A DNA stretch of 64,000 nt from an uncultured Eubacteriales bacterium. Its GTDB lineage: Bacteria; Bacillota; Clostridia; Oscillospirales; CAG-272. Position 1 is the first letter of the stretch, and each line of letters opens with the position of its first letter. The stretch covers positions 12,594 through 76,593 of the forward strand of contig CAKSEM010000001.1 in NCBI GenBank assembly GCA_934446485.1, in the 5' to 3' direction. Of this stretch, positions 2,593-56,540 are shown in pieces. The notes under the pieces were generated by a model. It saw nothing but the letters and a program-made list of their open reading frames with translations. It had not been told where the DNA came from and did not search any database. A program made the position numbers and the translations under genes.

Positions 2593-3538
2593 TGATTTGA
2601 GTCAGAACCAGACTATTCGTGAGGCTATCCGAAAGATAGCCTTGCGTGGTTTGGTAGACCCAAGCACAAATACGGTTCACGATACAGGTAGAGTCACAGG
2701 ATATGTCTGTAAGATTCATTCTGATGAAAGCGATGAGCTGTTTGGTACGGTAGACGTTCAAGAATACCCTACTATGGCATTTGAAACAACAGATGATATG
2801 CCAGTAGGTTTACATGAAGGTGTATTGCTAAGTGCCATGCAAAACAATATGAATGGAATGGTTATTATTCCTAAGCTGTATTCTGAAGTCACCATAGTGA
2901 CCGATCCTGCAAGTCATACAGAGTATGTTTCCATGTTTTCCCATGTAGACATCATCCAGCTCGATTCACATGACACTATCACAGTAGGCGTGAAAGAACG
3001 AGAACCGTTTAACGAAAGCGATGAAGACTCTCCAGATGTCAACGAATTGGAGGAGACAGGTGTGTATTCTCAAACAACATACAAGAAAAATTCTATCGTG
3101 ACCCAAGTTCAAGATAAAGATGATAAGAATAAGTCATCATTATCTATGGATGGCAATCAAATATGCGCAGCTGTTGGCAATGCTGAGAGCGAATATATCC
3201 AGAACCACGATAAGATAAGAGCAGCGCACGATAAGGCAGAGTTGGAGCTGAATGGCAGTGAAAGCACTATGAAATTTGGAGGTTCCAAAGTAAAGGTAGA
3301 AGATGGAACTGTCTATTTGGGCAGTGATAGTGGAACCGATGATGCTGTACTTGGTGGTCAATTAGCAGACATATTGATGGATATTGTTGGCTATATCAGT
3401 CAGATAAAGACAACCACACAACTTGGCCCACAACCACCTCTGAATATGGCACAGTTCATAGCTTTGAAATCAAAGATTAATTCGTTCAAGTCTTCGCATA
3501 GCGGATTCTTGACTAAGAAAGTACAAGTACAGAAATAA
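2573..3538 (+). CDS. Hypothetical baseplate/spike-like protein
   Basis: 321-aa ORF overlapping its neighbours. The product call rests only on context. Confidence 0.5.
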   Translation: MTRKLHSDLSQNQTIREAIRKIALRGLVDPSTNTVHDTGRVTGYVCKIHSDESDELFGTVDVQEYPTMAFETTDDMPVGLHEGVLLSAMQNNMNGMVIIPKLYSEVTIVTDPASHTEYVSMFSHVDIIQLDSHDTITVGVKEREPFNESDEDSPDVNELEETGVYSQTTYKKNSIVTQVQDKDDKNKSSLSMDGNQICAAVGNAESEYIQNHDKIRAAHDKAELELNGSESTMKFGGSKVKVEDGTVYLGSDSGTDDAVLGGQLADILMDIVGYISQIKTTTQLGPQPPLNMAQFIALKSKINSFKSSHSGFLTKKVQVQK

Positions 3539-5322
3539 TGGCAGAAGCAAAGTTAAATTTCAATGAAGAGAGTCTGGATAAGAAGTCCAGCTTATATGAT
3601 TTGTACAGTCGCTTCTTCCAGGGCATGACTGAAGCGAATAAAGTAGATGCACCAGATTATTCGGAAAATCCACCTTTGAATGAAGATGGCTCTATAAATA
3701 ATGAAAAAATAGCAGAAGGTCTCGCTGAATACTCGCAGATATTAATGAAAAACTCTGCTTACATGATGGCAAATGCCATTATTTCGACAGTAAGCAGTGG
3801 CGGTTCTGGAGGCGAAGGGGGCGGTGGTCTTGGCTATATCGCACGTTCTGGTGATTCTATGACAGGTATGCTTGGGGCATTATATGGCTTCCAGGCAGGA
3901 TATGACAATAAGATGATTTTCGATGTTGCAGTAGATGCGAGCAACAAGAAAGTTGCCCATGTCTATGGAAATCTTATTGTTGATGAAGATGAGACCATTG
4001 CAGGAAAGCTTATATTGTCGGATGCTGGCTTATATTTTGGGAAAAGTCAGACCATGTGGATTGCAGATAATAAGTTAAATTTTGCATATCAGAACATCCA
4101 GTTTGCTGGTGAGGTTAGCATTGATGGTTCGCTGTCAATTGGTGACTTTAAGATAACGCAGAATGGTATATCTATGGGCGAGAATGAGTTCTACCATAGC
4201 GGTAACTGCAATAATAAAGACACCGATTGGGCAATGAAAAATGCCCATGTTTACGGAGACCTTATTGTTGAGGGTTCGTATGAGCAAAAAGGAGGTTTGA
4301 AAGCTCTGTATGGTTTTGAGTTAGGTGAATATGGCAAGAGGATGTTATATTCTGTCAAGGATGACGCTAATAAAGAAACTGGTCATGTAGCATTGATTTC
4401 AGACCTTGTAATAGCCCCGACATGTGGTATTAAGTTTGGAGAATCGTATATCATCAAGGTAAGAGGTGGTGAGAATAGCAATATCATATCCATTGCATCG
4501 CCAGGTAAAGTAATGAACCTTGGAGATAGCGATGGGGAGGTTAAGACCACACGAATATCACTTCAGACAGAAATTTGGGACTACAACAGTTCATATAGAA
4601 TTATCAGTCAGTATGGCGATGGACATTTTAGAAACTCATTGGAAGCTGGATGCAGTGCGTCGGGTGATACTGTATTAAGAACGTACCACAATTCCGATGT
4701 GGAGTGCGGTGTTGCTTTTTATAAGAAGGTTCGTTTCGGCAAACTTGAAACTGCCCCCAATATGTATGCAGATGACACCAACACCATATTATATGGCTCG
4801 TTACCATATATAAGAGTGTTGAATGATGTGCCAAAAACAGAGCATATCCCATTCAGTTTTCGATACATTCAGACAGAATCGCTGTTTAAGAATCAAAGCT
4901 CAGAATGGTCAGCTACGTTGGAGCTTGACACAGAAGCAGAGTTCTTTAGATTGTCAAAGCCTGTAGAATCTTCCGCTTTCTCAATCTCCAGTGAAAAATA
5001 CAAGACACGGCTTGCTGAAAATGTGCTGTATTTTGCTGATGCAGTTTATCTGGAAGGTGTTACAGATGGCATAAAATATCAAGGAAATGCTTATTTCACA
5101 GGCGCATTAAGCTCCCAGAGATTTGCAAGCGGCTTTGCTGGATATGGCTGGGCTGTAATGAACAGCAAGCTATATGGTGGTTATGCAGCAACATTTGATG
5201 AGTTGACTGTGCGTAAAAAGATGCGCATATATGAACTGGAAGTCCAGAAAATATCGGTTACAAATGGCTCTCTATGGGTAAGTGATGCTTGTTCTGGAGA
5301 CCTCGTAGAAGAAGTTTTATAA
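3538..5322 (+). CDS. Tail fibre-like structural protein
   Basis: 594-aa ORF with a TAATG overlap and a Gly-rich linker (SGGSGGEGGGG). Beta-rich composition, tail-module context. Confidence 0.55.
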   Translation: MAEAKLNFNEESLDKKSSLYDLYSRFFQGMTEANKVDAPDYSENPPLNEDGSINNEKIAEGLAEYSQILMKNSAYMMANAIISTVSSGGSGGEGGGGLGYIARSGDSMTGMLGALYGFQAGYDNKMIFDVAVDASNKKVAHVYGNLIVDEDETIAGKLILSDAGLYFGKSQTMWIADNKLNFAYQNIQFAGEVSIDGSLSIGDFKITQNGISMGENEFYHSGNCNNKDTDWAMKNAHVYGDLIVEGSYEQKGGLKALYGFELGEYGKRMLYSVKDDANKETGHVALISDLVIAPTCGIKFGESYIIKVRGGENSNIISIASPGKVMNLGDSDGEVKTTRISLQTEIWDYNSSYRIISQYGDGHFRNSLEAGCSASGDTVLRTYHNSDVECGVAFYKKVRFGKLETAPNMYADDTNTILYGSLPYIRVLNDVPKTEHIPFSFRYIQTESLFKNQSSEWSATLELDTEAEFFRLSKPVESSAFSISSEKYKTRLAENVLYFADAVYLEGVTDGIKYQGNAYFTGALSSQRFASGFAGYGWAVMNSKLYGGYAATFDELTVRKKMRIYELEVQKISVTNGSLWVSDACSGDLVEEVL

Positions 5323-7859: not shown

Positions 7860-10800
7860 ATGGCAACAGACATTTCAAAACTGCTTAACAAGCAGCCAAA
7901 CTCCAGCCAGCAAGCAGCAACAGAGACTGTTCCAGCCAATGAGAAGGTAACTTCTGATGAATGGAACACTTTAGTGCAAGCTGTGCAGGAGAATCAAGCC
8001 AGCGTTAAAGTGGTGAAGATGGGAACCAATGAGTACAAGCCTGTTGATGGCGTTGTGACTTTGCCTTATACAGCCGAAGGTTCCGAAGTCAGTTTGAAAA
8101 CAACTGATGACTTGAAATCTATGGTAAGTATTACTGGCAAAGCCACATTGCACTTATTGTATACCAGTACATCGGCTGGTTACGATACAGGCAATAGTGG
8201 TGTGCTTTACATCCAGACCTATGCAAATGGTCAGTGGACTACGCAAGGCACAATGGCGATGGCTTCCAAGAATATCGCAGCTGACTATGATGAAATTGAT
8301 ATTACCAGTTATTTGTCAACTGGTAGTAATCGTGTGCGTGTATATGTTTATGATGAAGGATTCGGCACTCAATCAAATCCTATAATCTTTGAATCAATTG
8401 TACTTACTACATTAAGAGTAGAGTTGGCTTCAGAGTATTACCACCCTGTAACTACAGACTACCTCCAGCCATCTTATTATATATATGGTGCTGGCGTGAA
8501 GAAGACGTTGCATTTGAAGGTAAGTGGTAAAACCGCTGATGGTCAAGACGGATTCAGAGAGATTACTTACTCTATAGGCACAAACACTTACACAACTTCT
8601 GCATATACAGGAGCAGCAATTAATGACACCAGCTCTCAAACTGTCAAGATTATTAATCATGGCGTTCATACAGTTGAGGCGTGGGTGACATGCGTAGATG
8701 GTTCTGGAAAGGAACTTGAATCAGAACATATTGTCAACTCGTTTATGCTTGTTGTAAATGAAGATGATATGACTCCTTACTTGCTTGTTCAAAACCTAAA
8801 GACAAAGGTTGTGAATTACGAGCAGATAGTTCTGTTCGACTATGCGGTTTACAATCCGAATAGTGAAGCTATGAGCATTGCCATTGTTATGAGTGATTAT
8901 GACAATGTAATGGAGTATTTGCGATTGGAGAATGAAACAATGCCGAATACGCCTAATTCTGTAGAAACAACAGTTGAGGTTGAGAATGATTCCGATGACA
9001 TTCTTTATTCTTATTTGCATATTTACAGAGTTGTTGATGGCAAGGAATATAATTTCTTGAAGGAATCTACAGGAACAGAATCGGAAATCATAACTGTTGA
9101 CAATACAGAGAAGTTTAGCCCTACAAGTGGTGTTGATTTCTTCTTGAACCCGAAAGTAAGAAACAATAGTGAGTCAAATCCTGCCAGAATCTTAAATGCA
9201 GCAAAAGGCAATGTTGAGTTGTCTGGAGCTAAATTTGAAAATTTTGGATTTGTGAATGACGGATGGATTAAAGCTGAAGACAAGCAGAGTGTCCTTCGTG
9301 TATTGGCTGGGCAAAAGGTGACGATACCTTATGAGCCTTGGGAGAATTTTAAGAACAATACAGCATCAAGCATGACATTGGAGCTTGATTTTAAGATTCG
9401 TAATGTAACTAATGAGTCTGATCCTATCATTCAATGCTGCTCGATCATCCAGGCAACAGGTAATCCGCTTGGATTGTTAATGCGTCCGCTTGATGGCTAT
9501 ATCAACACCGTTACTCAGTCAACTGAGGCAGACCAGAACTTTGGTTGGATGGAAAATGTACGCACTCACATTGCTATCAATGTAGTTCATGCCTTACGTT
9601 CTTCTTCTACCAATTCAACAACAGTATCTCTTGTGCGTGTGTTTATCAATGGCGTTCTGAACAGAGAGTTTCCATTTGATACAGCAACAGCAAACGAATT
9701 TATTTCATCTATGGGACATGGTGGAATTAGAATCGGACAAGACGATGCAGATGTGGACATTTATTCAATCCGATGCTATCAGAAAGCCTTGTCTTCTGAT
9801 GATTGTATGCAAGACTATAGTAGTACATTGCCTACATCTGAAGATAAAATTGCTTTCCGTAACGCTAATGCTATTGTACAAAACGGTGAGATAAATTATG
9901 CGCTTGCCAAGGAAAAATACAACGTACTTGTGTGGCACGGCTATGAGACATATCGTTTTGCAACAAATAATCAGACAGGATGGTTGGAAATATCCTTGCT
10001 AAATGAAGATGGCACACCAGACAATGCGCATAGCGGAACTATTGGCAAAAAATACGGCAAGCTTCCAGACAAAGGACAAGGCTCTACTGCTAAGACCTAC
10101 TATTGGTGGAATCAGCAGTGGGACATAAACAAGATGAAAGGTGATGATGGCAATTCGATTACTGATGACGGTTGGATAGACGGTAATGGTGATGAAAGAG
10201 GCAATGCCTATCAGCTTACCGATGATGTTCCAGCTGCCACTAAATTGGTATTGAAAATCAATTATGCTTCATCTATGCAGAGCCATAAACAAGGTGCAAC
10301 AGAGCTTTACAACTTGCTTCATACAGCTATTGTTGGTCAAAACTCCATGCAAAAGGCTAATCCGAAAGCAAGAGTTGCCGTATTGGAGCGTCCTGTACTT
10401 TACTTCATCCAGACTCCAGATGATTCAGAGCCTGTATTCCACGGCTTAGGAACATTTGGGCCTGGCAAGATGGACAAGAAGACATGGGGATATTCGTCCG
10501 ATAAGTTCCCAGACTTCGCTATGATGGAAGGCTCAGATAACAATAAGCCTTTAACTGATATGCGTGTCCCTTGGGACGATAAGGTAACATATAATGCTGA
10601 TGAAGAGTATTTTGAATATGCTGGCGATGGTAATATAGACTTTGATGCTGGTCTTACATACAAAGAATCAGATGATGAAGGTCATGTAAAAGGACAGCCA
10701 TTAGATACAATTACAGACTACTATAAGACTGCATGGAACTGGCTGTTTATGCACAATCCACGCATTAAGCCATATACAGATGGTAACTTCTCAACTTTCC

Positions 10801-13800
10801 AGGATGACACTACGGTTGACACCTCTTATCAATACTGGATGACACAAGCTGGAGGTGGCGCATCGTTGTATGACGTGGTACGTTATGACTTTGTTGATAA
10901 GAAATGGGTTCCAGCAGGTCTGCCAGACTCATCTAATCCAAGCGGATATGCGACAAAAAACTTAAAGACATTGTACAATAGTGCCATTAGTAATATAGCT
11001 ACTGGCGCATGGTCAGAACTTAACACTGCATTTATCTCTGCTATAGTGGCAGAAGCAAGAGAAGAAATCGGTGATTATTTCAACAAGAAATCATTGCAGT
11101 TCCATTACTGCTTTGTAAATTTCTTGATAGCTGGAACGGACAATTGTTCTAAGAATACATATTATGCTCTTGACCCGATTACACACTTGATAGAGCTGCA
11201 TCAAGACGATTTGGACACCATCTTCAAGACGGATAACTCTGGCTATCAGATTAAGCCGTATTATATAGACCGCTTGCATCCGTATTCAGATGAGGGCGAA
11301 TTGCTCTACACAGAAGGCGGTGGTAACGTGCTATTCAATCTGATTGAGTTGATGTGGGAAGGCGGTAATAACGAATTGGCTAATATGATGAATACCATTT
11401 TGAATGAAATGGCAGGATTGATTACCGCAGAAGACCAGAAGAAGGGCATTGAAAAGTCACCTTGGGGTTGTATACAAAAGTACTTCTTCTCTATTCAAGA
11501 GTACTTCCCTGCCGTAGCCTTTAATGAGACAGCTCGTATTCGTTATGAGTACCCGACTATGCTGGAATATGTCAGTGACCGTAATGTGAAACCTATCTCC
11601 CAGTCATTAGGAGACCAGTTGCAAGCTGAAAAGCAATACATGAAACGTAGACTTGTATATGCTTCTTCGTATGCCGCTTATGGTGAGTTTGCCTTGAATG
11701 GCGGCAATGGCTTTGGATTCAATACTTACCCAAGAATAGATGGAAGCGCACCAACGGCAATACTGGATGTAACGCCACACCAGTACCTTTACCCGACAGC
11801 ACGAGTTGGTCAGACTTTGCGCAACCCTCATGTTAGAGTAAAACCGTTTGAGACCTATCATTTTGTTATTGATAATAGTGGCAACTTGGGAGATACAGTA
11901 TGCGGATTGAAAGGCGGTAACTATTATCGTTCGTTTGGTAATATTGGTGACTTATCTGTGAAGCCAACTAATGACTTCTCATTACAAGGCGAGCGACTGG
12001 TGGAGATTATCGCCAATCCAATAGGGAATCCAGAGTTCCGTCCTACCAGATTGAATGTCACTACAGCTTTGGTGAAGAACATTTCGTTGAAAGGTGAGAA
12101 ATTGTTAGGTGGTCAGCTTGACTTATCGGTTTGTACCAGATTATCGACAGTTGATATTCGAGACACCAAGATAACAAGTGTTAAATTCCCTGCTTCAGAG
12201 TTATTGACATCCGTACAGCTTGGAGGTTATCTTACAGCATTGGAAATCAATAATTTACCGAAATTGTCTAAATTGACATTGAACGCATACGATTATTTGA
12301 CCTCGTTTATTATTGGTGAGAATGTTGGTCAACTGGATTTGTATCAGACGATTGCAGAGTTGTATGATGCAAAACACAATGAGACAGACCCATCCAGAAT
12401 GTTGCAAGCACTTACAGTAAAAGATGTGAACTGGAAGAACGCTACGATAGACCTGTTGAAGTGGCTGCTCACTATTGATAACTTGAAAATAACTGGAAGT
12501 ATCACGCTTGCAGCCAGTGAATATATGACGTTTGAATTGAAGAAACAACTTATGGAACGCTTTGGCGATATAGACTCACAAAGCAATTCGTTGTTTATTT
12601 CATACGTCCAGCGTACAATCAGTAGTATACAGATTGCTGGCGACAATACGTTCAGAGAAGCTGGTTCTCGCCAGTTTACGCTGATTCCAAATAGTCCAAA
12701 TGCTAACAATTTCAAGTCAATCAAATGGTCACTCACAACATCTGCATACGCTTCTGTGAATGAGAAAACAGGAGTTGTTACTTGCAATAAGATTTCAACT
12801 ACGGCTTTGACGGTTACGCTGAAATGTGTTGTTGAGACTACGGACAGAACAATGGAAACAACTTTCCCATTGTATTTGTATGACCGTCAAGCAGAATTGG
12901 GTGATTATGTATATTCAGATGGCACATATAGCGATATGTTGAATCCTTTGAAGACAGTTATCGGAATATGTTTTTATATTGGTGCTGAGAATAACAGTGA
13001 CGGCACTCCAGACCGAAGAATGGTAGCACTGAAAGACATGGAATGTCTGAATGGCGCAACATCATGTCCTTGGGGATTGTTCGGATATACTGGCAATACA
13101 GATCCTGATTATATGAACAATTATGTGATTTCTGGTATTCAAATTGAAGGCATGAATGACGCATATAATGTTGCTGACATCACTGATTTTGGAAGTTCTG
13201 GTTTGGAGCCACGTTCCGACAACAATTCTGTATGGTATATTGGGGATAATAACTATCGTGATGAAGACAGTGGTGATAAGTACGGATTCAAAACAGGATT
13301 TGCCGCCAATACAGGAGCTGGAGACTTGCAATTAGTCAAGCCAACAGAAGAGCAGAAGAGCATGATTGGAGCTGGATATGTTGGAGATAAAAAGATTCCA
13401 AGTGGTCAGCAGCACACATTGGCAATCATCCAGCATCGTAATCAGATATTGGATTCTATATCTTACCCTATTCCATCCGCACAGTATGTGAATAGCCAAA
13501 TCACTCAAACAGAGATTGAAAATGTCCGTGAGTGTATAGAAAAGATAATTGCCAATATGAGTGCAGCAAAATATCAGCAGTACTATTACCCAGCGGCTTC
13601 ATACTGCTACGCATACGAGCCGAAAGGCTTGTTGGAAGGCGAAGAATTGGCTGATAGATTTAAGGCACATAATTGGTATTTACCTTCTTCTGGTGAGCTT
13701 GCTCGTTTGTATTGGTATTATCAAAGAGGCAAGGACGATGATAAGAACATCTTTAAGGCAGCGTTGGCTTCTGGCAAGATGACTAATTTTACGTCCTCTG

Positions 13801-13925
13801 TTCGCTGGAGTAGTTCCGAGTACGGCAGTTGGTACGCATGGTACGTCGACTTCGGTAATGGTAGCTTCTACTACGGCGGCAACAAGTACAACAGCTGCGT
13901 TGTGAGGGCAGTCTCCGCATTTTAG
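7860..13925 (+). CDS. Giant multidomain adhesin/tail-fibre protein; DGR target with C-terminal variable region
   Basis: 2021-aa uninterrupted ORF. By-eye motifs: LamG/ConA-like (about 9300-9800), CotH-like 'AGTDNCSKNTYYALDP...HQDDLDTIF' (about 11100-11260), LRR (about 12050-12330), Ig-like Big_2 (about 12600-12830), DUF1566/C-type-lectin-like 'HNWYLPSSGELARLYWY'. The VR covers the last 43 codons. Confidence 0.85.
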   Translation: MATDISKLLNKQPNSSQQAATETVPANEKVTSDEWNTLVQAVQENQASVKVVKMGTNEYKPVDGVVTLPYTAEGSEVSLKTTDDLKSMVSITGKATLHLLYTSTSAGYDTGNSGVLYIQTYANGQWTTQGTMAMASKNIAADYDEIDITSYLSTGSNRVRVYVYDEGFGTQSNPIIFESIVLTTLRVELASEYYHPVTTDYLQPSYYIYGAGVKKTLHLKVSGKTADGQDGFREITYSIGTNTYTTSAYTGAAINDTSSQTVKIINHGVHTVEAWVTCVDGSGKELESEHIVNSFMLVVNEDDMTPYLLVQNLKTKVVNYEQIVLFDYAVYNPNSEAMSIAIVMSDYDNVMEYLRLENETMPNTPNSVETTVEVENDSDDILYSYLHIYRVVDGKEYNFLKESTGTESEIITVDNTEKFSPTSGVDFFLNPKVRNNSESNPARILNAAKGNVELSGAKFENFGFVNDGWIKAEDKQSVLRVLAGQKVTIPYEPWENFKNNTASSMTLELDFKIRNVTNESDPIIQCCSIIQATGNPLGLLMRPLDGYINTVTQSTEADQNFGWMENVRTHIAINVVHALRSSSTNSTTVSLVRVFINGVLNREFPFDTATANEFISSMGHGGIRIGQDDADVDIYSIRCYQKALSSDDCMQDYSSTLPTSEDKIAFRNANAIVQNGEINYALAKEKYNVLVWHGYETYRFATNNQTGWLEISLLNEDGTPDNAHSGTIGKKYGKLPDKGQGSTAKTYYWWNQQWDINKMKGDDGNSITDDGWIDGNGDERGNAYQLTDDVPAATKLVLKINYASSMQSHKQGATELYNLLHTAIVGQNSMQKANPKARVAVLERPVLYFIQTPDDSEPVFHGLGTFGPGKMDKKTWGYSSDKFPDFAMMEGSDNNKPLTDMRVPWDDKVTYNADEEYFEYAGDGNIDFDAGLTYKESDDEGHVKGQPLDTITDYYKTAWNWLFMHNPRIKPYTDGNFSTFQDDTTVDTSYQYWMTQAGGGASLYDVVRYDFVDKKWVPAGLPDSSNPSGYATKNLKTLYNSAISNIATGAWSELNTAFISAIVAEAREEIGDYFNKKSLQFHYCFVNFLIAGTDNCSKNTYYALDPITHLIELHQDDLDTIFKTDNSGYQIKPYYIDRLHPYSDEGELLYTEGGGNVLFNLIELMWEGGNNELANMMNTILNEMAGLITAEDQKKGIEKSPWGCIQKYFFSIQEYFPAVAFNETARIRYEYPTMLEYVSDRNVKPISQSLGDQLQAEKQYMKRRLVYASSYAAYGEFALNGGNGFGFNTYPRIDGSAPTAILDVTPHQYLYPTARVGQTLRNPHVRVKPFETYHFVIDNSGNLGDTVCGLKGGNYYRSFGNIGDLSVKPTNDFSLQGERLVEIIANPIGNPEFRPTRLNVTTALVKNISLKGEKLLGGQLDLSVCTRLSTVDIRDTKITSVKFPASELLTSVQLGGYLTALEINNLPKLSKLTLNAYDYLTSFIIGENVGQLDLYQTIAELYDAKHNETDPSRMLQALTVKDVNWKNATIDLLKWLLTIDNLKITGSITLAASEYMTFELKKQLMERFGDIDSQSNSLFISYVQRTISSIQIAGDNTFREAGSRQFTLIPNSPNANNFKSIKWSLTTSAYASVNEKTGVVTCNKISTTALTVTLKCVVETTDRTMETTFPLYLYDRQAELGDYVYSDGTYSDMLNPLKTVIGICFYIGAENNSDGTPDRRMVALKDMECLNGATSCPWGLFGYTGNTDPDYMNNYVISGIQIEGMNDAYNVADITDFGSSGLEPRSDNNSVWYIGDNNYRDEDSGDKYGFKTGFAANTGAGDLQLVKPTEEQKSMIGAGYVGDKKIPSGQQHTLAIIQHRNQILDSISYPIPSAQYVNSQITQTEIENVRECIEKIIANMSAAKYQQYYYPAASYCYAYEPKGLLEGEELADRFKAHNWYLPSSGELARLYWYYQRGKDDDKNIFKAALASGKMTNFTSSVRWSSSEYGSWYAWYVDFGNGSFYYGGNKYNSCVVRAVSAF
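13793..13919 (+). repeat. DGR variable repeat (VR)
   Basis: 127 nt homologous to TR 14546-14669. By hand alignment there are 16 substitutions, every one opposite a TR adenine, plus one extra codon. The last 21+ nt (gttgtgagggcagtctccgca) are identical to the TR. Confidence 0.9.
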
Positions 13926-13966
13926 AGAAATTTAGACCCGAATCTTACATTCGGGTCTAAATTTCT
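13926..13966 (+). terminator. Perfect 18-bp hairpin 6 nt downstream of the VR (terminator and/or DGR target-recognition hairpin)
   Basis: agaaatttagacccgaat (13926-13943), loop cttac, attcgggtctaaatttct (13949-13966). Overlaps the target-gene stop region. Confidence 0.75.
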
Positions 13967-14061
13967 TACTTGTTTGTAAACCTTAATAAACTAAGACTCT
14001 ATTCGTAAGTAAACATATATAATTTAAGTCTGATATAGACGTGTATTAAAATACTGGAAAT

Positions 14062-14463
14062 ATGAAAGCAGCGCAATCATCTATATATCGCTCCATTGAA
14101 AATGTTATGATATGGTTTATACCTGTATCAGCACGAGTTCCGAAAATAATTGCACTTCGTTGTTTGGCAGAAGAGTGTACCACTAATATGAGTGATGCAC
14201 TTACTTCTGTTGCGTTGGGATTGCAATCAGAGAACTGGAATGATGTTAGAGATTGCATTGATATGGTGTTGCTACACATGACCAAAGTGAAAACAGCGGT
14301 GAAGATACTCAAAGAGTATTCTGATAGAAGTGCTACAATACATATCCTCAACGATCGCCAATTATCTGTATTCGCATTGTCTATGAATAAGATAATGACT
14401 GAATTAGGTAAATGGAGGAAGAAAGTAGAAACACGCATTGGCCCTGTTGACATTCACGAATGA
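14062..14463 (+). CDS. avd: Avd-like DGR accessory variability determinant
   Basis: 133-aa helical protein between VR and TR. Its stop overlaps the RT ORF start (ATGA at 14460-14463). Size, position and the 'SIYRSIENVMIWFIPVSARVPK' N-terminus fit the four-helix-bundle Avd family. Confidence 0.65.
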   Translation: MKAAQSSIYRSIENVMIWFIPVSARVPKIIALRCLAEECTTNMSDALTSVALGLQSENWNDVRDCIDMVLLHMTKVKTAVKILKEYSDRSATIHILNDRQLSVFALSMNKIMTELGKWRKKVETRIGPVDIHE

Positions 14464-15896
14464 AAACAAGTGGTATATATTTATTAAATGGGCGCACCAC
14501 TGGGGTGAATACCTTAGTTAAGAACAAGATAGTGTGCGCAGCACAGTCCTCTAATCGCTGGAGTAGTTCCGAGAACAACAGTTGGAACGCATGGAACGTC
14601 AACTTCGGTAATGGTAACTTCAACAACAACAACAAGTACAACAGCTACGTTGTGAGGGCAGTCTCCGCAACTGATAAAGATATACAAAGTTGGTTAATTG
14701 CTTTTTACGATTGTTGCAAACGCAAGAAAACCAGTACTCAATGCACTCTATATCGACTTATTTTTGAAGAAGATTTACCCCTGCTCGCAACTGAAGTAAA
14801 AGAACGTGCTTACCACCCTACGGTAAGCATTTGTTTTTGTGTAACCAGACCTAAATTGCGAGAAGTGTTTGCTGCAAATTTCAGAGACCGTATTGTGCAG
14901 CATTGGATTTGTTTGAGATTGGAACCACTATTTGAAGAGCGATTCCAGTCTCAAAACAACGTGTCGTATAATTGCCGAAAGAATTTTGGAACACATAAAG
15001 CAGTGCAGCGACTCGCCACCCAGATGTATAATGTGAGTGGCGGTTACAAATACACTGCATACGTTGGTCGTTTTGATATATGTTCTTTCTTTATGAGTAT
15101 TGATTGCAAGATATTGGAAGAAATGCTCATTCCATTTATAAAAGAGAATTATAAAGGCGATGATATTGACACATTGATATATCTTGTACAGGTTATTGTG
15201 CGCCATGAACCACAGAAAAACTGTATAAAGAAAGGTCAGACAGAGTTGTTTGAACGTCTCGAACACAACAAAAGCTTATTCTATGCAGAGTATTTGATTG
15301 GTATGCCTATAGGAAATCTTACCAGTCAATTATTTGCCAATTTCTATATGTCATTCTTTGATGAGTATATGTTGAGGCTATGCAAGCAATACAAATGCAA
15401 GTATGTTAGATTTGTAGATGATTTCTGCATTACAGGACGCAAGAAAGCCAACATATTAAAGATGTATAGAATGGCAGACTTATATTTGAAGAATAAGTTG
15501 CATCTAACATTACATCACGATAAGTTCTATTTACAAGAAGTAAAACATGGCGTAAAATTCGTTGGAAGCGTAATTAAATATGACAGAATATATCTTAGCA
15601 ATCGCACAGTTGGCAGTCTGGTTAATCGTGTTAATGAAGCTGAGAAAATATGCAAGGCAGCAGTTATGGCAACTCCAGATGAAGAACTGGAGGCTTATTA
15701 TAATTTGGATAAAGTGGTATGCGCATTGAATAGCTATTTCGGTTTCTTGATACATTGTAACAGCTATGCAATAAGACGTAAATTATTCAAGAATTGCACA
15801 TACTTTTGGAAATGCTGCTATGTAGAAGGCAAGTTTGCCAAAGTATGTATTAAGAATCAATATAAACTAACTCGTAAATTACTTTCAGAAGAATGA
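14460..15896 (+). CDS. DGR reverse transcriptase (ORF includes the TR at its 5' end)
   Basis: 478-aa ORF. RT motifs seen: 'FRDRIVQHWI', 'SYNCRKNFGTHKA', the DGR-type 'IGNLTSQLFANFY', and the catalytic 'YVRFVDDF'. There is no in-frame ATG between 14460 and the RT core. Confidence 0.9.
   Translation: MKTSGIYLLNGRTTGVNTLVKNKIVCAAQSSNRWSSSENNSWNAWNVNFGNGNFNNNNKYNSYVVRAVSATDKDIQSWLIAFYDCCKRKKTSTQCTLYRLIFEEDLPLLATEVKERAYHPTVSICFCVTRPKLREVFAANFRDRIVQHWICLRLEPLFEERFQSQNNVSYNCRKNFGTHKAVQRLATQMYNVSGGYKYTAYVGRFDICSFFMSIDCKILEEMLIPFIKENYKGDDIDTLIYLVQVIVRHEPQKNCIKKGQTELFERLEHNKSLFYAEYLIGMPIGNLTSQLFANFYMSFFDEYMLRLCKQYKCKYVRFVDDFCITGRKKANILKMYRMADLYLKNKLHLTLHHDKFYLQEVKHGVKFVGSVIKYDRIYLSNRTVGSLVNRVNEAEKICKAAVMATPDEELEAYYNLDKVVCALNSYFGFLIHCNSYAIRRKLFKNCTYFWKCCYVEGKFAKVCIKNQYKLTRKLLSEE
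14546..14669 (+). repeat. DGR template repeat (TR)
   Basis: 124 nt, rich in AAC codons (reads NRWSSSENNSWNAWNVNFGNGNFNNNNKYNSYVVRAVSA in the RT frame). This is the invariant, adenine-bearing partner of the VR. Confidence 0.9.
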
Positions 15897-16249
15897 ACAT
15901 GAACTATCAGTATTCAGATGTCGAGCCTCAGTTTATTGTATGTAACAGAAATCTTGGGCGCAATGAATACACCATCAATTTTGATGTAGCAGAATTGAAC
16001 AAAAAGGAACGGTCAGAAGGCAAGAAGTACAGCTATTTGGCTGTTACACTTCCAGCTGGCAATTACAGCCGAGATATTGTGATTTCTAAAATCATTGAGT
16101 CAAGATATTCTTCGGATGAAATGACAGCTGTGATTAATAACTACCTTCTTGATGATGGTGACGAGGAATCGTTGTCAGAGTTTAAGGAAATGCAAGCCTG
16201 GAGGAAACATGCCAAGGAAATTGCGGATAAATTCATATCCTCAATTTGA
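15893..16249 (+). CDS. Hypothetical protein translationally coupled to the DGR RT
   Basis: 118-aa ORF whose ATG overlaps the RT stop (ATGA). It is the last gene before terminator 16270-16316. Confidence 0.6.
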   Translation: MNMNYQYSDVEPQFIVCNRNLGRNEYTINFDVAELNKKERSEGKKYSYLAVTLPAGNYSRDIVISKIIESRYSSDEMTAVINNYLLDDGDEESLSEFKEMQAWRKHAKEIADKFISSI

Positions 16250-16269
16250 CCTCCAGCACCTTCTAATTT

Positions 16270-16316
16270 ATAGGAAAGTCAATGCCCTTTGATGGAATTG
16301 GCTTTCCTATTCTTTT
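16270..16316 (+). terminator. Rho-independent terminator closing the DGR operon
   Basis: 14-bp stem: ataggaaagtcaat (16270-16283) pairs with attggctttcctat (16297-16310), with one G-U pair. Followed by tctttt. Confidence 0.7.
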
Positions 16317-37563: not shown

Positions 37564-38601
37564 ATGTATATCAGCAAGCAAGACAAAGATTTTCTCATCA
37601 AGGAATTGGAGATAGAGCTTCACGCTAAACTTGATGGCCCACGCAAGAACCTCATTTGCCCAGAGTGTCCTTATTGTGGCAAAAAAGGTGGCAAATTCGG
37701 CATCTATGTAGGGCAAGAAACAGAGAAGAAGAAGCTCTTTATGAGTCACTGCTTCTCATGTGGTCATACTACAAAAGATGTCAATCAGCTCTTAGAAGAC
37801 ATTGGCAGACCAGACTTAATGCTGGAAGATACTGCCAGCTTCGCTCCATTACAGATACCGCAGTTCTGCAATCTGGAAGAAGATGAGATTGACGATGAAC
37901 TTGTTTCTGTTGATATGCCAGAAGGATGGAAACGGTGTTACCGTAACGCCTATCTGAAGAAACGTGGCTATACTTGTGATGATTACGACTACTTTCCTGT
38001 TGGTACAACCAGAGGTCTTAATTTCAAATTTGACGATTATGTCGTATTTCCCATCATTGATAATGGTGACATTGTAGGATATGTATCTCGCCATACATGG
38101 AGTAAGGATAAGATAGATTCTTACAATAAGAAAGCCAGACGTAACGGCAAATTTGAAATTAGACGATACAACAACAGCCAAGAAAATGACTTTACAAAGT
38201 TGCTTTACAACTATGACGCAGTGATAGAAGATGTAACAGATACTGTCATATTGGTTGAAGGAGTATTCGATTGTGTCTCGCTTGTCAGAAAGCTTGATTT
38301 GTATGACAATCATCGTATTGCAGTAGTAGCTACGTTCGGAAAGAAAGTTTCAGAAGCGCAAATTTACAAGCTGCAAAGTAAAGGCGTAAGAACTGTAGTG
38401 ATTGGATATGATGGCGATGCTTTGTCTGCAACAAACACAGCAGCAGCCATGTTAAACGAGTATTTCGATTGCTATATAGCCTTCATAGAAGACCCAGAAG
38501 CCGACTTTGACAGTATGGATTTTTGGGACATCTACGATACTTTTAGCGAGAGATTAATGACACCAAGAGAGTTCAAATTAAACTTAGTGCAATTATTATG
38601 A
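37564..38601 (+). CDS. DnaG-like primase (zinc ribbon + TOPRIM)
   Basis: 345 aa. 'CPECPYCGKKGGKF...HCFSCGH', TOPRIM 'ILVEGVFDCVS' and 'GYDGDA'. Confidence 0.8.
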   Translation: MYISKQDKDFLIKELEIELHAKLDGPRKNLICPECPYCGKKGGKFGIYVGQETEKKKLFMSHCFSCGHTTKDVNQLLEDIGRPDLMLEDTASFAPLQIPQFCNLEEDEIDDELVSVDMPEGWKRCYRNAYLKKRGYTCDDYDYFPVGTTRGLNFKFDDYVVFPIIDNGDIVGYVSRHTWSKDKIDSYNKKARRNGKFEIRRYNNSQENDFTKLLYNYDAVIEDVTDTVILVEGVFDCVSLVRKLDLYDNHRIAVVATFGKKVSEAQIYKLQSKGVRTVVIGYDGDALSATNTAAAMLNEYFDCYIAFIEDPEADFDSMDFWDIYDTFSERLMTPREFKLNLVQLL

Positions 38602-40304
38602 ATGAATTAATAAAATGGCTGGAGGATAATAAAATAACATATAATCTCATTGACAATGAGGTTATCGAGCTTCCAGATTTCGGCAAAATGTTCTTTGAAG
38701 ATACGGAAAGTATGAAATCCATATTCCGCACCAACAAGGATGATGAGCTGATATTTAACAGTATGGAAGATCCAGAAGTTTTGATGGCAGAAGGTATTAA
38801 CTATATTGTATTCAAGTTTGGAGACAACTGGTATTACTACGACTTACGCAAGGACTTCAAGCTGAATATCCTTAAATACGTTGGTAAAAGAACACCATCA
38901 AATCATAAGTTTGAGTATGTCAATTTAGGTGTTCACACGCCTTTTGAACTACTGAATGGAAGCTTTATGCCAACATATTGGGTAAGAAAAGCCAAGTATT
39001 TGGGACATCCAGGAATCGGTATTTGTGATAAAAATACGATGGCAGCTTGCTACAATCTGCAAAAAGAATGTGAGGCGGCTGGACTGAAATATGTATTTGG
39101 ATATTCATTAGTGTTCTCTGATGGTGAGCATACAGTTGGTGCAAAAGTTTATGTTCAGTCACAAAAAGGATTGCGGAATCTGTTGCGAATACAGAAAGCC
39201 ATTATGGTAGACAGCACGGATAAGATTATTCCTTTGGAAGAATTGCTGAATCGTGGTGAAGGCAATGTAATTGTACTTGACAAGTATTCTTCATTCTGGA
39301 TTACTGAAAACCAAGACATTGTAAAGGATTTGCAAGAGTCTTTTGATTGTGTCTTTTGGCAAGTAGATTTGTCGGAATATAAGGCAGAACGTATTGACAT
39401 CAAAGTATTAGAAGCAGCCAAACATTATTTTGACAATATATATGGCAAGATGGGCGTATATCCAGTGCTTCTTACAGATGCCTATTATCTGGATGAAGAC
39501 GATGCCAAGAATAAAATTATCCTCAATAAGGTTGCAGATGGCGCAGCGCATGAGCAAAGTAATCAGCAATACTTCAAAGATGTTGATGAACAATATCAAC
39601 TTTTTGCTGACACATTTGATGCCGATAAATGGGATATTGACAGTCTATTTCAAGAATGTTGCGACAATTCTATGGATATATTGGAACATGCCAATGCAAG
39701 GTTTGAAAATAATAGAAACTTCATGCCTAAATACGACATGACTCCAGAAGAGCAAGCAAAATATGGAACATCACACAACATGTTCATTCAACTCTTAGAG
39801 GAAGGGTTGCAACGCCTCGTACCGCCAGAGCAACAAGATAAGTACCGCAAGCAGATGGAATATGAGCGATACATCATTGAGTCAACAAACAATGTGGACT
39901 ATTTGCTTGTACAGTATGACACATGTAATTGGGCAAGACGAAACAATATCCTTGTCGGTTGTGGACGTGGTTCTGCTGCTGGATGCTTATTGCTATATCT
40001 GCTTGGTATAACGCTCATTGACCCGATGAGATACGACCTTATCTTTGAACGCTTCTTGCTACCAGAACGAGCAGGATTATATCCAGCCAAAACAACCATT
40101 ATCGGTGAGGATTTGGAGTCCAAAGAATATATCGAAGTAGAATTGGATGGTGGCAAGGTAATAAAGATAGACAAGGATGCCCAGCTGATTATCAAGCGTG
40201 AAGGTGAAGAGGAGCCTCGTGTAATATACGCAGATGAGCTGGAAACAAATGATGACATTTTGTTCGATAATAAGGATTTAATATTCACAATAAACGAAAT
40301 TTAG
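38598..40304 (+). CDS. dnaE: DNA polymerase III alpha, N-terminal fragment (PHP domain plus start of palm) with a 75-aa non-DnaE C-terminal extension
   Basis: 568 aa. PHP-like 'YVNLGVHTPFELLNGS', then 'GCGRGSAAGCLLLYLLGITLIDPMRYDLIFERFLLPERAG'. From 40077 to 40301 the sequence is unrelated to DnaE. Confidence 0.8.
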   Translation: MNELIKWLEDNKITYNLIDNEVIELPDFGKMFFEDTESMKSIFRTNKDDELIFNSMEDPEVLMAEGINYIVFKFGDNWYYYDLRKDFKLNILKYVGKRTPSNHKFEYVNLGVHTPFELLNGSFMPTYWVRKAKYLGHPGIGICDKNTMAACYNLQKECEAAGLKYVFGYSLVFSDGEHTVGAKVYVQSQKGLRNLLRIQKAIMVDSTDKIIPLEELLNRGEGNVIVLDKYSSFWITENQDIVKDLQESFDCVFWQVDLSEYKAERIDIKVLEAAKHYFDNIYGKMGVYPVLLTDAYYLDEDDAKNKIILNKVADGAAHEQSNQQYFKDVDEQYQLFADTFDADKWDIDSLFQECCDNSMDILEHANARFENNRNFMPKYDMTPEEQAKYGTSHNMFIQLLEEGLQRLVPPEQQDKYRKQMEYERYIIESTNNVDYLLVQYDTCNWARRNNILVGCGRGSAAGCLLLYLLGITLIDPMRYDLIFERFLLPERAGLYPAKTTIIGEDLESKEYIEVELDGGKVIKIDKDAQLIIKREGEEEPRVIYADELETNDDILFDNKDLIFTINEI

Positions 40305-40306
40305 TT

Positions 40307-41617
40307 ATGATGCAATTGACAAATGAAATGGTTGAAGCTGTAGACATCATACAGAATACCAACCAATCGCTTTATATTACAGGAAAAGCTGGTACAGGAA
40401 AGACTACATTCTTGCGATATATTGTGAACAACATTAAGAAGAAGTTTATCGTAACAGCATCTACAGGAATTGCAGCTGTAAATGCTGGAGGTGTAACGCT
40501 TCACAGTTTGCTCAACATTCCTTTTGGAGTGCTTACGGAATCAGAGAATGTGCATAGTAGCTATAAGCCAGAAAAGGCGATGCTGCTTCGTTCTATTGAT
40601 GCTATCATCATTGATGAGGTAAGTATGGTACGCCCAGACGTGATTGACTACGTTGATAGAAAGTTACAGATGTACCGTGGCAGCAGTGAGCCTTTCGGAG
40701 GCGTACAAATCATTATGTTTGGTGACTTATTCCAGTTGCCGCCAGTGGTAAAAGCTGATGAACAGCATATATTGTCACAGTTCTATCGTGGCATATATTT
40801 CTTCCATGCTCATGTATGGCGCAATGCTGGTTTCAAAGTAATCGAGTTGACGCATATCTTCCGTCAGAACGACAAGCGTTTCATCGAAATACTCAATAAT
40901 ATACGAGAATATCGTATAATGCAAGAAGATATAGATGACCTGGCCGCATTAAGAAACAAGAATGAAAGCAAGGATTTCTCCAACTCCAGCATACATATAT
41001 GTGCTTACCGCAAGGACGTACAGAAAATCAACACAGAATTGCTTGGAGAGCCTACGCATGTTTATAAAGCAATGGTTACTGGAGATTTCCAACCCAATTC
41101 AGCACCATGTGAACAAGAGCTAAAACTTCGTGTTGGAGCAAGGGTTATGATGCTCGTAAATGACCCAGCACATGTATACTGCAATGGCTCGTTGGGTGAG
41201 GTTGTAAATCTCAACGATAAAGTTGTTACAGTAAAACTTGATAATGGTTGTACTGTAGGCGTAATGCCAAATACTTGGTCTGCTAAAGAATATCGCATGA
41301 TGAACGATAAGATTGAGACCATTGATAAAGGCTCTTGTACGCAGTTCCCAATAGCGTTGGCATGGGCAATTACTATTCATAAGAGTCAAGGTTTGACTTT
41401 TGACAATGTTGTTATCCATACAAAGGGCTGCTTCGTTCCTGGACAGTTATATGTTGCTTTGAGTCGTTGCAGAACACTGGAAGGTATTGTATCTGACACA
41501 TTTATTGATAAGAGACACATCTTGACCGACATGGAACTGGTGAAGTTTACGGAAGCGTATAAATTGAACAATAACATCTTTGACAACGAAACATATAAGA
41601 TTATGAGACGAGTATGA
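40307..41617 (+). CDS. PIF1/RecD-family helicase inserted between the two dnaE fragments
   Basis: 436 aa. 'ITGKAGTGKTTFL', 'AIIIDEVSMV', 'FGDLFQLPPV', 'TIHKSQGLTFD'. There are 2 nt after the dnaE-N stop, and its own stop overlaps the dnaE-C start (ATGA). Confidence 0.85.
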   Translation: MMQLTNEMVEAVDIIQNTNQSLYITGKAGTGKTTFLRYIVNNIKKKFIVTASTGIAAVNAGGVTLHSLLNIPFGVLTESENVHSSYKPEKAMLLRSIDAIIIDEVSMVRPDVIDYVDRKLQMYRGSSEPFGGVQIIMFGDLFQLPPVVKADEQHILSQFYRGIYFFHAHVWRNAGFKVIELTHIFRQNDKRFIEILNNIREYRIMQEDIDDLAALRNKNESKDFSNSSIHICAYRKDVQKINTELLGEPTHVYKAMVTGDFQPNSAPCEQELKLRVGARVMMLVNDPAHVYCNGSLGEVVNLNDKVVTVKLDNGCTVGVMPNTWSAKEYRMMNDKIETIDKGSCTQFPIALAWAITIHKSQGLTFDNVVIHTKGCFVPGQLYVALSRCRTLEGIVSDTFIDKRHILTDMELVKFTEAYKLNNNIFDNETYKIMRRV

Positions 41618-44600: not shown

Positions 44601-44631
44601 TATGAAACGAAGTTTATTGGAAGTATTATGA
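41614..44631 (+). CDS. dnaE: DNA polymerase III alpha, C-terminal fragment (catalytic PDxDxDF onward) containing an HNH intein
   Basis: 1005 aa. After a 32-aa leader comes 'SLPDVDNDF...', which continues the DnaE alignment. 'GTYCFNK' and 'SHATAYAVTAYAGAWLKVHYP' flank a 282-aa insert. Confidence 0.85.
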   Translation: MKVVSATLKTSDTPVKTIDTFVDDGYLQGEGGSLPDVDNDFQSDKRQEVKEYTERRYNKNGLQRVFSAGTYTTLKSKACLKDVARTMRIPTSIVNYITAIIDDDKCDYTGLFKLAATNKKVAKFIGDHPQLFEDVRTLMFQPRSSSVHASALLITPDTKDGETMECFDYVPIKKVDGILVSENDGYELDELGLLKNDCLATKELSKIHQTLDLVNSVYHQDITLEKLATGSLDDEKVYEVLANGCTQNVFQFSSHGITKFLTEMKPSNIGDLIAANALYRPATMGNLDDYVNCKKGLVAPVYLWGTYNSLKDTFGLVVFQEQIVMMAREVGGFSLGEGVKLVKFVSKKKTDKIRAMKDKFMAGAKRNGCPQEDADKIWAQIEAAGTYCFNKCISGKERIRRSNRTSGGLTIAEMYKVMNDRAWAVAHGHKSLHDRYRRVGYGKGWSLVHTDGYDEYLLKNDIVDIRYMGIRPLYRITLEDGRTIDVTDNHKHPTNNGMKRTDELQVGVDKMYVNIGSLSEDTVYRFTDKGSSNDTYYHSNDNVQQYELNSEKGHCGFTKRDTNYTLLEKYRKEQMKSHCEKCGKSDCRLEIHHINGDHSVIGDNYSNLQTLCSSCHKKAHYAMGRAKQGEKGLYTELRAVVSVEYIGDDEVYDVEMADPYHTFTTEQGVVTCNSHATAYAVTAYAGAWLKVHYPTAFYTVALQWADDNELVALMGEMEAISNAKVVPPDINVSEDIFHTDYNTNEIFWSISRIKQLGAKAVQWIMDERKKNGEFTSITNFIDRIFKYKLKKYEYWDDPDNEEEATRCPVNARCVLNLILAGCFDKVEHAGSVIERYAIIEKAAEQLGFEIKEKDIPVDMRGKHYFWSQQQVKVSGIGSVDYKRIYDNSAIKPQLKGRVSYATLQSITPNEMDGKKVGVCATVVEVEEKKFKSKKTGGEETFCKLLLQQNNDLCECIVWPEEYKSMRPQLIDSKNKLIIFSATVKYSDYAGKNNLQFMKRSLLEVL
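42787..43632 (+). mobile_element. Intein with HNH homing-endonuclease domain in dnaE
   Basis: Begins 'CISGKERI' (Cys1). Block B 'VTDNHKH'. HNH 'CEKCGK...LEIHHINGDH...NLQTLCSSCHKKAH'. Blocks F/G 'EVYDVEMADPYHTFTTEQGVVTCN' followed by Ser +1. Removing it restores the DnaE 'FNKSHA' motif. Confidence 0.85.
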
Positions 44632-49919: not shown

Positions 49920-50155
49920 TGGCATACGGACAATTAAAAGCACCGACCAACATTAGAATTGATTTTAAGCCATCACCAAGACAGTATGAGCTTTGGAAAT
50001 TATTACAACCAGATTATTGTCCTCATTGTGGTGGTCATATTATACAAGTTCAATCTGGATATGATCAGCAAGGTAATCCAAAATATGTTCCACAATGCGA
50101 TGCTTGCGGAACGCAAGATCTCCCTCAATTGATTTTGGGTGGAGGTGCTGCTGGT
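49919..50155 (+). CDS. terL: Terminase large subunit, exon 1
   Basis: 79 codons ending '...LILGGGAAG', the first half of the Walker A box. Past 50155 the ORF runs into intron sequence and stops at 50209. Confidence 0.75.
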
Positions 50156-55945: not shown

Positions 55946-55966
55946 ATTCCAATGACAAATCGCTTG

Positions 55967-56040
55967 TGGAGAAGGTGAGACTCGAACTCACGACCCTATG
56001 CTTGCAAAGCATACGCTCTTGCCATCTGAGCTACAACCCC
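55967..56040 (-). tRNA. tRNA-Ala (anticodon UGC)
   Basis: Hand-folded cloverleaf. G3-U70 Ala identity pair. Anticodon loop TTTGCAA. T loop TTCGAGT. Tandem U-U mismatches at 5:68 and 6:67. Confidence 0.75.
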
Positions 56041-56046
56041 AAATTG

Positions 56047-56120: not shown

Positions 56121-56128
56121 TTTTGTAG

Positions 56129-56200: not shown

Positions 56201-56213
56201 CATGAAAAATATG

Positions 56214-56513: not shown

Positions 56514-56540
56514 ATTTGCTTTTGTTTCGCTGTTTTATAG

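Follow-up and report, generated by a model that had tools for sequence, protein, structure and literature searches.

Evidence for a canonical diversity-generating retroelement in the tail module of a large, uncultured gut phage

A reverse transcriptase (RT) gene that lies beside two near-identical repeats poses the question of whether the three belong to a diversity-generating retroelement (DGR), and of which protein such an element would rewrite. The question is raised here by a 64,000-nucleotide (nt) stretch of DNA (the window; contig CAKSEM010000001.1, positions 12,594 to 76,593, in assembly GCA_934446485.1 of an uncultured Eubacteriales bacterium), in which a first-pass annotation made from the sequence letters had proposed a complete DGR. 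The present analysis leads to a similar answer. The locus is very probably a canonical DGR in the tail module of a gut phage of about 100-115 kb, in which a target gene with its variable repeat (VR), an avd-like gene, a template repeat (TR) and the RT gene follow one another in the commonest DGR layout ('B1'). The target open reading frame (ORF) and the two repeats are located as follows.

7860..13925, + strand: target gene, encoding a 2021-amino-acid (aa) protein of the tail/baseplate module whose extreme C-terminal end holds the variable region
13793-13919, + strand: VR, 127 nt, ending 6 nt short of the stop codon of ORF 7860-13925
14546-14669, + strand: TR, 124 nt with 39 adenines, in frame within the RT ORF

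Anatomy of the repeat pair

A blastn search within the window aligns the VR with the TR at an E value of 5e-28, at the coordinates of the first-pass annotation, and finds no third copy of the repeat in the 64 kb. A repeat search reports the pair as two blocks, spaced 753 and 750 nt apart, which a gapped alignment joins. With the gap placed by the aligner, the VR and TR differ by 14 substitutions, all at TR adenines, and by one 3-nt gap in an AAC tract. When the gap is moved to the 3' end of the tract, 16 substitutions are obtained, again all at TR adenines. The annotation had also counted 16, evidently because its gap was put at the tract end. None of the 85 non-adenine TR positions is substituted in the machine alignment. 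Given 39 adenines among the 124 TR bases, the hypergeometric probability that all mismatches fall on adenines is 1.4e-8 for 14 mismatches and 7e-10 for 16. The pair also exceeds the minima of the DiGReF procedure, which requires a TR with at least 10 adenines and at least 7 adenine substitutions (PMC6199706, PMC3521204), with 39 and 14-16, respectively.

The VR is one codon longer than the TR within the (AAC)n tract (13868-13882 in the VR, 14621-14632 in the TR), where the VR reads TTC TAC TAC GGC GGC AAC AAG and the TR reads TTC AAC AAC AAC AAC AAG. This difference in length was implied by the annotated coordinates but went unstated in the annotation. Of the 41 in-frame TR codons, 11 are AAC and 2 are AAT. 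The mutagenised part of the VR extends from 13800 to 13897. By codon arithmetic (15^13 x 4^2), its potential diversity is on the order of 10^16 peptides.

The 3' end of the VR is formed by an invariant segment that resembles the initiation of mutagenic homing (IMH) element of known DGRs, and a hairpin stands directly behind the target gene.

13898..13919, + strand: IMH-like invariant 3' VR segment, CGTTGTGAGGGCAGTCTCCGCA, 22 nt, GC-rich
13926..13966, + strand: hairpin with a perfect 18-bp stem and a 5-nt loop, directly after the target stop codon

The segment CGTTGTGAGGGCAGTCTCCGCA is identical to the 3' end of the TR at 14648-14669. Past its terminal ...CCGCA, the homology between the VR and TR ends abruptly, with TTTTAG following the VR and ACTGAT following the TR. 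The three adenines of the segment never vary in 17 VRs from related genomes (described below), and the last variable adenine is located at 13897. On the BPP-1 model (PMC5758913), the segment would be the homing-initiation site. Identity between the VR copy (IMH) and the TR copy (IMH*) is known for some DGRs (PMC5758913).

The hairpin begins 6 nt beyond the end of the VR/TR homology and has no counterpart after the TR; the VR, and not the TR, is thus followed by an inverted repeat behind an invariant GC-rich end. Folded as DNA, the hairpin has a free energy of -18.9 kcal/mol (z -6.1), and none of 200 shuffled sequences is equally stable. Two compensatory stem-pair changes (GA..TC to AC..GT) are observed in a lineage with 80% identity to the window (L001, L006 and L015). 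A hairpin of 10-18 bp with an unrelated stem sequence occupies the same position in all nine diverse relatives that were compared, including the cultured phage BS-TP1.

The hairpin may act as a DGR recognition structure, as a terminator or as both, and these roles are compatible. That it serves solely as an intrinsic terminator behind the target gene, without a role in retrohoming, is a credible explanation, albeit the less probable one. Its stem is followed by a T-rich tail, as in the terminator pattern, and a high-confidence inverted repeat after the IMH is found in only about a third of DGRs (PMC5758913). Against this stands the requirement for an equivalent inverted repeat in efficient homing in BPP-1 and Legionella (PMC5758913). 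Moreover, with the IMH and IMH* identical, the recipient must be marked by some element specific to the VR flank. The retention of the hairpin position despite full turnover of its sequence in the nine relatives fits either role.

Reverse transcriptase, Avd-like protein and target

The RT gene encloses the TR and contains the motifs by which DGR RTs are distinguished from other RT classes.

14460..15896, + strand: RT ORF, 478 aa, whose ATG overlaps the avd stop codon (ATGA)
15309-15329, + strand: IGNLTSQ motif, RT residues 284-290
15411-15422, + strand: FVDD catalytic motif, RT residues 318-321, intact

The ORF translation contains the motifs IGNLTSQLFANFY and VRFVDDF, which the first-pass annotation had noted as DGR-type. 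The protein matches Pfam RVT_1 (E value of 2.4e-9) and the PHROG 1423 reverse transcriptase family (1.5e-68). Among all PDB sequences, its best relative is bRT of Bordetella phage BPP-1 (8ub7_A, 6.3e-16); the best group II maturase (6e-8) and the retron-type RTs (about 1e-4) match more weakly. The alignment to bRT pairs PIGNLTSQLFANFY of the RT with PIGSLTSQLFANVY of bRT. The bRT residues R74 and I181, which promote adenine misincorporation (PMC7826257), are aligned to R and I in the window RT. The sequence [I/V/L]GxxxSQ is the signature of DGR RTs, whereas group II and retroviral RTs carry QGxxxSP (PMC3521204, PMC7826257). Residues I284, G285, N286 and Q290 of the window RT are invariant in an alignment with its relatives (A2). 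The motif, the intact xxDD and the best PDB relative all support an assignment of the protein to the DGR RTs.

An RT from a group II intron, a retron or an abortive-infection (Abi) or Drt defence system, next to an unrelated C-terminal duplication under ordinary diversifying selection, would be the alternative origin of this arrangement. NCBIfam returns matches to such RTs and none to a DGR-RT family. The matches lie far below the respective cut-offs (in bits: group II TIGR04416, 75.8 against 300; retron St85, 48.7 against 235; Drt2, 45.6 against 390; Drt3a, 25.6 against 200). A group II maturase is contradicted by the sub-threshold score, by IGNLTSQ in place of QGxxxSP and by the absence of intron RNA, and a retron or defence RT (Drt, Abi) by sub-threshold scores and by the absence of a non-coding RNA family and of an effector domain. 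Specifically, Rfam detects no group II intron or retron RNA in the window, including the vicinity of the RT gene, and Pfam detects no effector domain fused to the RT ORF. Ordinary selection, for its part, cannot confine all 168 of the VR/TR differences found among related genomes (see below) to template adenines or hold the second copy invariant. With bRT as the best solved relative, this alternative has a negligible probability.

The conserved RT core begins at about 14679, at most 8 aa after the TR. After the TR begins, the only in-frame start codon is the GTG at 14651, which is replaced by ATG in one relative (L007). Nearly all of the best 120 RT homologs extend over the first 70 residues with an ORF that is open through the TR, and many of them carry RVT_1 together with Lcl_C in precomputed Pfam annotations. 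The part of the ORF ahead of the TR contains a conserved motif, LLNGRxTG...LVKNKxV, which these homologs have in common. Codon changes in this part are mixed and fit a constraint at either the protein or the nucleotide level. It is a possibility that the RT of this clade is made with an N-terminal extension of ~70 aa, consisting of the LLNGRxTG motif and a lectin-like peptide encoded by the TR. If so, the TR would double as the coding sequence of a functional RT domain. The location of the TR within the RT ORF was considered as a novelty and dropped, since a TR that overlaps the annotated RT ORF is already described as group 3 of Schillinger et al. (PMC3521204).

The gene between the target and the TR encodes the putative accessory protein of the element.

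14062..14463, + strand: avd-like gene, 133 aa, isoelectric point (pI) 8.8, between target and TR

The first-pass annotation had proposed an Avd-like gene here, and the support comes from structure and from the wider family. A search with the protein sequence gives no Pfam match, and a PDB search yields noise alone. An AlphaFold model built from 13 sequences folds into a four-helix bundle with a predicted local distance difference test (pLDDT) score of 78. The top PDB matches of the model in Foldseek are 2gsc, 4dwl (BPP-1 Avd), 8ub7_C (Avd in the DGR ribonucleoprotein) and 2rld, with probabilities of 0.85-1.0, template-modelling (TM) scores of 0.5-0.65 and E values of 0.03-0.2. Eight of the ten best matches are chains of Avd or S23-IVP-family entries (five of them chains of 2gsc). 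Of 13 close homologs, 12 match the NCBIfam model DivGenRetAVD (NF033474). A profile search across 1.84 billion representatives collected 71 clusters, mostly of 120-155 aa, and 28 of 49 aligned members of this extended family match DivGenRetAVD, with a best E value of 1.6e-9. The pI of the window protein can be compared with an average of 9.5 +/- 0.7 for Avd proteins (Wu et al., PMC5758913). On its predicted fold and its profile-extended family, the 133-aa protein is a divergent Avd-like protein and not an equivalog.

The target protein matches Pfam Lcl_C (PF07603, formerly DUF1566) at residues 1923-2018, with an E value of 1.2e-8 and a score of 35.7 bits against a gathering cut-off of 34.9. 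The DUF1566-type C-terminus with its variable residues, including the C-terminal sequence itself, is as the annotation had described it, and the VR occupies the 3' end of an ORF with a variable domain of this type. The protein also matches PHROG 24896, a family to which PHROG assigns no function, at 1e-87. The genes beside the target match baseplate hub, tail fibre and tail protein families in PHROGs. A lectin-type fold of the tip is suggested by the Lcl_C family match. The tail module context and family precedent suggest that the protein may be a tail adhesin with a role in host range.

Variation among related phage genomes

A working DGR should leave a VR that varies at template adenines and a TR that stays constant, and related genomes were compared in this respect. 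A first pattern scan, with N at the adenines of AAC codons, retrieved nine IMG/VR contigs of up to 110 kb. To avoid bias, the scan was repeated with the anchor GGGCAGTCTCCGCATTTTAGAG, which combines the VR 3' end with the VR-specific flank and lies outside the variable part; it found the same nine viral contigs and eight human-gut metagenome contigs. An exact-pattern scan with the upstream flank of the VR gave no match, as this flank is not exactly conserved. The related contigs are 80-96% identical to the window over 5-10 kb.

In 15 VR/TR pairs (one with a truncated VR), 168 mismatches are located at TR adenines and none at other bases. Sixteen of the 17 full VRs are distinct, and one VR is shared by L001 and L015. 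In the eight loci with long flanks, the nucleotide diversity of the VR is 0.42 opposite TR adenines and 0.006 opposite other bases. The corresponding values are 0.047 for the 880 nt upstream and 0.006-0.017 for the TR, which hardly varies across the relatives. Where non-adenine TR variants occur, they are mirrored in the VR of the same genome (GTG>ATG in L007, AAT>TAT in L002 and a TAC/AAC lineage codon), as a flow of information from TR to VR predicts. The surviving VR changes comprise 151 A>G, 70 A>T and 13 A>C, numbers that include selection and do not give the raw error spectrum of the RT. The annotation had called the system active-looking and had suggested testing whether polymorphism in the source population is confined to positions opposite TR adenines. 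Carried out between genomes, this test gave the confinement expected, and VR hypervariability beside TR constancy lends support to the description.

The stretch 13926-14885, which contains the hairpin, the avd-like gene, the TR and ~200 nt beyond it, has a nucleotide diversity of about 0.01, compared with about 0.05 in the target gene and the distal RT gene. This low diversity indicates purifying selection on the DGR machinery. The conservation of the stretch would also be in line with a constrained DGR RNA. Over the 250 nt that follow the TR, RNAalifold detects no conserved RNA structure among nine diverse relatives (-1.7 kcal/mol, no covariation). A local hairpin at 14806-14830 is conserved in the close lineage alone, without covariation.

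Differences in codon number accompany the substitutions. The VR is longer than the TR by one codon in the window, by three in L003, by one in L016 and by one in BS-TP1 (L010; VR 8072-8084, TR 8907-8916). Indels of 3 nt between VR and TR are also found in L020 and L022, and the codon number of VR and TR differs in L012 as well. TR tracts of 3, 4 and 5 AAC codons occur among the relatives, and the extra VR codons are all NNC, that is, mutagenised AAC. Such indels have been reported in about 7% of DGRs, mostly beside AAC, with RT slippage as the proposed cause (Wu et al., PMC5758913); slippage is likewise discussed in PMC12875486. The AAC-tract indels were therefore dropped as a candidate novelty. 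They are unusually frequent in this phage clade.

These observations can be arranged into a conditional scheme on the BPP-1 paradigm, from which the RNA intermediate, the RT-Avd complex, the homing mechanism and the role in receptor binding or host range are taken. The RT, acting with the Avd-like four-helix-bundle protein, would reverse-transcribe an RNA that spans the TR. It would copy C, G and U faithfully and misincorporate opposite adenines, and the mutagenised cDNA would replace the VR and leave the TR unaltered. The VR would be marked as the recipient by the segment 13898-13919 and probably by the hairpin 13926-13966. About 16-18 codons of the Lcl_C/DUF1566-type tip (11 AAC, 2 AAT, 2 TAC and others) would be recoded, which would presumably alter receptor binding. 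Slippage on the (AAC)n tract would gain or lose whole codons.

Several points weigh against a canonical, active DGR. The evidence for activity is a comparison between genomes, and not within-population reads or cDNA. The relatives differ by 4-20% overall, and their VR differences may have built up over undated time. Because the IMH and IMH* are identical, discrimination between donor and recipient would rest on the flanks and on a hairpin that could equally well be a terminator. The Avd-like protein of the window matches DivGenRetAVD over its full length at an E value of 0.0035 and 17.6 bits, below the 80-bit equivalog cut-off. The AlphaFold model of the C-terminal 221 aa of the target has a pLDDT of 48, too poor for a fold search. 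The RT start codon at 14460 is putative, because the TR lies inside the RT ORF.

The first of these points bears on the alternative that the locus is a fossil, intact in sequence but inactive, whose VR differences are vertically inherited relics of past retrohoming. L001 and L015 carry an identical VR, and one relative (L021) has a TR with non-AAC codons and non-adenine mismatches, so decay does occur in the clade. In the window, all ORFs are intact and the catalytic and DGR-specific RT residues are conserved. A fossil would also have to account for 16 distinct VRs among 17 genomes that show 92-96% identity elsewhere, without non-adenine drift in any VR (0 of 168 mismatches), and for a hairpin-avd-TR stretch that is several times less diverse than its flanks (about 0.01 against about 0.05). 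A fossil origin is thus very unlikely, and a canonical DGR remains the preferred reading.

Known systems, phage context and meaning

The locus can be placed among known DGRs by its resemblance to the BPP-1 element (mtd-avd-TR-brt), which has the same order of target with VR, avd, TR and RT. In both elements, the VR/TR differences are adenine-only, the VR forms the 3' end of a tail gene, and a GC-rich invariant 3' segment is followed by an inverted repeat after the VR only. They share the [I/V/L]GxxxSQ motif and the residues equivalent to R74 and I181 in the RT, and the Avd-like protein of the window is predicted to adopt the four-helix-bundle fold. The target differs: the window encodes a 2021-aa protein with an Lcl_C/DUF1566-type tip, whereas BPP-1 diversifies Mtd, a protein of 381 aa. 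Unlike in BPP-1, the IMH and IMH* are identical in the window, the RT ORF encloses the TR and leaves no untranslated spacer, the Avd sequence similarity is marginal, and the VR is one codon longer than the TR.

The closest cultured relative is BS-TP1, a Bacteroides salyersiae phage with a genome of 111.7 kb (PQ571274). Its RT is 43% identical to that of the window, its Dda-like helicase 55% and its target, the ~2200-aa gp27, 27% across about 2000 aa. BS-TP1 has the same order of large target, four-helix-bundle protein and RT, with the TR inside the annotated RT ORF, adenine-only mismatches within the repeat and, as in the window, a VR that is one codon longer than the TR. In contrast, its Avd protein (171 aa) is not detectably similar, and the gene after its RT encodes a 216-aa DUF4376 protein in place of the 118-aa ORF of the window. 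The sequence kinship between the two is distant, with no megablast match; a megablast search of 13000-16300 against GenBank phages returned nothing. The authors of BS-TP1 described a myDGR-reported DGR on gp27 and, in more general terms, DGR action on unannotated ~2000-aa proteins of Bacteroidaceae phages (PMC12694917).

Hankyphage of Bacteroides dorei is likewise a gut phage with a DGR. Its 117-bp VR/TR pair shows 14 adenine mismatches, the VR encodes the C-terminal residues 2188-2225 of a very large ORF product that has a C-type lectin domain, and an Avd-like ORF of small size stands near the RT (PMC6199706). Hankyphage differs in being a 43-kb Mu-like transposable temperate phage. Hankyphage is absent among the 15 best RT matches listed, and the likeness otherwise rests on its description. 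The DGRs of the CLec2/DUF1566 class (Legionella; class 'd' of Wu et al., PMC5758913) also have a VR that overlaps a DUF1566/Lcl_C-type motif and in-frame 3-nt indels beside AAC repeats. Wu et al. found AAC-adjacent indels to be concentrated in particular lineages and ascribed them to RT slippage (PMC5758913). The class 'd' elements are mostly cellular, with lipoprotein or surface targets that are often multiple or remote, whereas the element in the window is phage-borne and has a single adjacent target.

The wider RT family comprises more than 4100 homologs at E values of 1e-10 or lower. Six relatives (L019-L024) with RT ORFs 49-64% identical to that of the window (A2) all contain a VR/TR pair, and the mismatches are adenine-biased in five of them. 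Five of the six have the same cassette of an about 2000-aa protein (often with Lcl_C), an ORF of 96-134 aa and the RT, and in L023 no ORF is called between the target and the RT. With BS-TP1 added, all seven relatives (44-64%, A2) have a VR/TR pair, adenine-biased in six. In L021, the TR (4107-4257, with the VR at 3336-3480) contains the non-AAC codons TAC, GTC and CTC GGC, and many mismatches are located at other bases than adenine. L021 may be a degenerate DGR of the same clade, with a TR that has been overwritten or is decaying.

A small ORF follows the RT in the window.

15893..16249, + strand: conserved 118-aa acidic ORF, pI 4.9, translationally coupled to the RT, whose stop codon its ATG overlaps (ATGA)

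This ORF received no annotation from Pfam or PHROGs, from a profile search of the PDB or from tblastn against GenBank phages. Orthologs stand directly behind the RT in five of six diverse loci that were fetched. A family profile identified 80 IMG/VR loci with a homolog, 77 of them with enough upstream sequence, and in 63 of these 77 assessable viral loci, an RT ORF reaches up to the start of the homolog or overlaps it. The RT-linked loci include L080, a DGR with a 437-aa target and no avd. Some of the RTs that precede homologs are too divergent for tblastn. In nine loci without an RT, the homolog comes immediately after a gene for a homolog of the big target protein, and the next tail gene after the 118-aa ORF is conserved in 27 of the 80 loci. 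The ORF may be either a tail-module partner gene, perhaps of a fibre, that stands beside DGR cassettes or a gene associated with DGRs that has so far escaped description. The latter option, an accessory gene new to the DGRs of this large gut-phage clade, to which the N-terminal extension of the RT is a related possibility, is a tentative and rather unlikely reading.

The remainder of the window encodes NrdD, SbcC, a DnaB-like helicase, primase, DNA polymerase and terminase and has a G+C content of 39%. The other features noted are listed below.

38598-40304, + strand: DNA polymerase part 1 ORF, matching the first third of the PHROG 405 profile
40307-41617, + strand: Dda-like helicase ORF, between the two polymerase ORFs
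41614-44631, + strand: DNA polymerase part 2 ORF, matching the rest of PHROG 405, with HNH-endonuclease matches inside
49134-49919, + strand: HNH/homing-endonuclease-like ORF, upstream of the group I intron
50116-50378, + strand: group I intron, Rfam RF00028, 90 bits
50421-51776, + strand: partial terminase ORF, matching only part of the terminase large subunit profiles
53467-54732, + strand: integrase-like ORF, PHROG 1 and PHROG 216, E value of 1e-15
55966-56612, - strand: four tRNA genes, Ala-TGC, Asn-GTT, Cys-GCA and Met-CAT

At 38598-44631, the DNA polymerase gene seems to be divided between two ORFs, and in BS-TP1, the helicase likewise adjoins the polymerase. The terminase gene may be interrupted by a mobile intron (49134-51776). 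The Asn-GTT tRNA decodes AAC, the codon enriched in the TR, which is probably coincidental.

The annotation had assigned the window to a temperate Bacteroidota phage. The assignment is in keeping with the integrase-like gene and with the infection of Bacteroides salyersiae by BS-TP1, but a search of GTDB species genomes revealed no integrated copy of the lineage, and the relatives occur as free-standing contigs of about 100-115 kb. The integrase-like ORF is the sole hint of a temperate lifestyle. The only match among GTDB species genomes is L025 (CAVKHW010000118.1, 114,655 bp), in an Eggerthellaceae (Actinomycetota) metagenome-assembled genome; its presence there is probably a binning artefact and not a host signal. 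On the integrase-like gene, the G+C content and the kinship with BS-TP1, a temperate Bacteroidota phage is plausible.

The layout, the target class, the AAC-tract indels and the overlap of TR and RT were known already, and the DGR of the cultured relative has been published. General knowledge of DGRs is unchanged by this locus, with the small ORF that consistently follows the RT as the sole possible addition. For the phage lineage, the comparison across genomes shows that a DGR has been turning over the tip of a 2021-aa tail protein. A hypervariable receptor-binding candidate is thereby identified for an uncultured lineage of large human-gut phages. It could be used in host-range prediction and in strain tracking, for which the VR is to be masked in strain-level comparisons, and the element may provide a further natural scaffold for DGR-based protein diversification.

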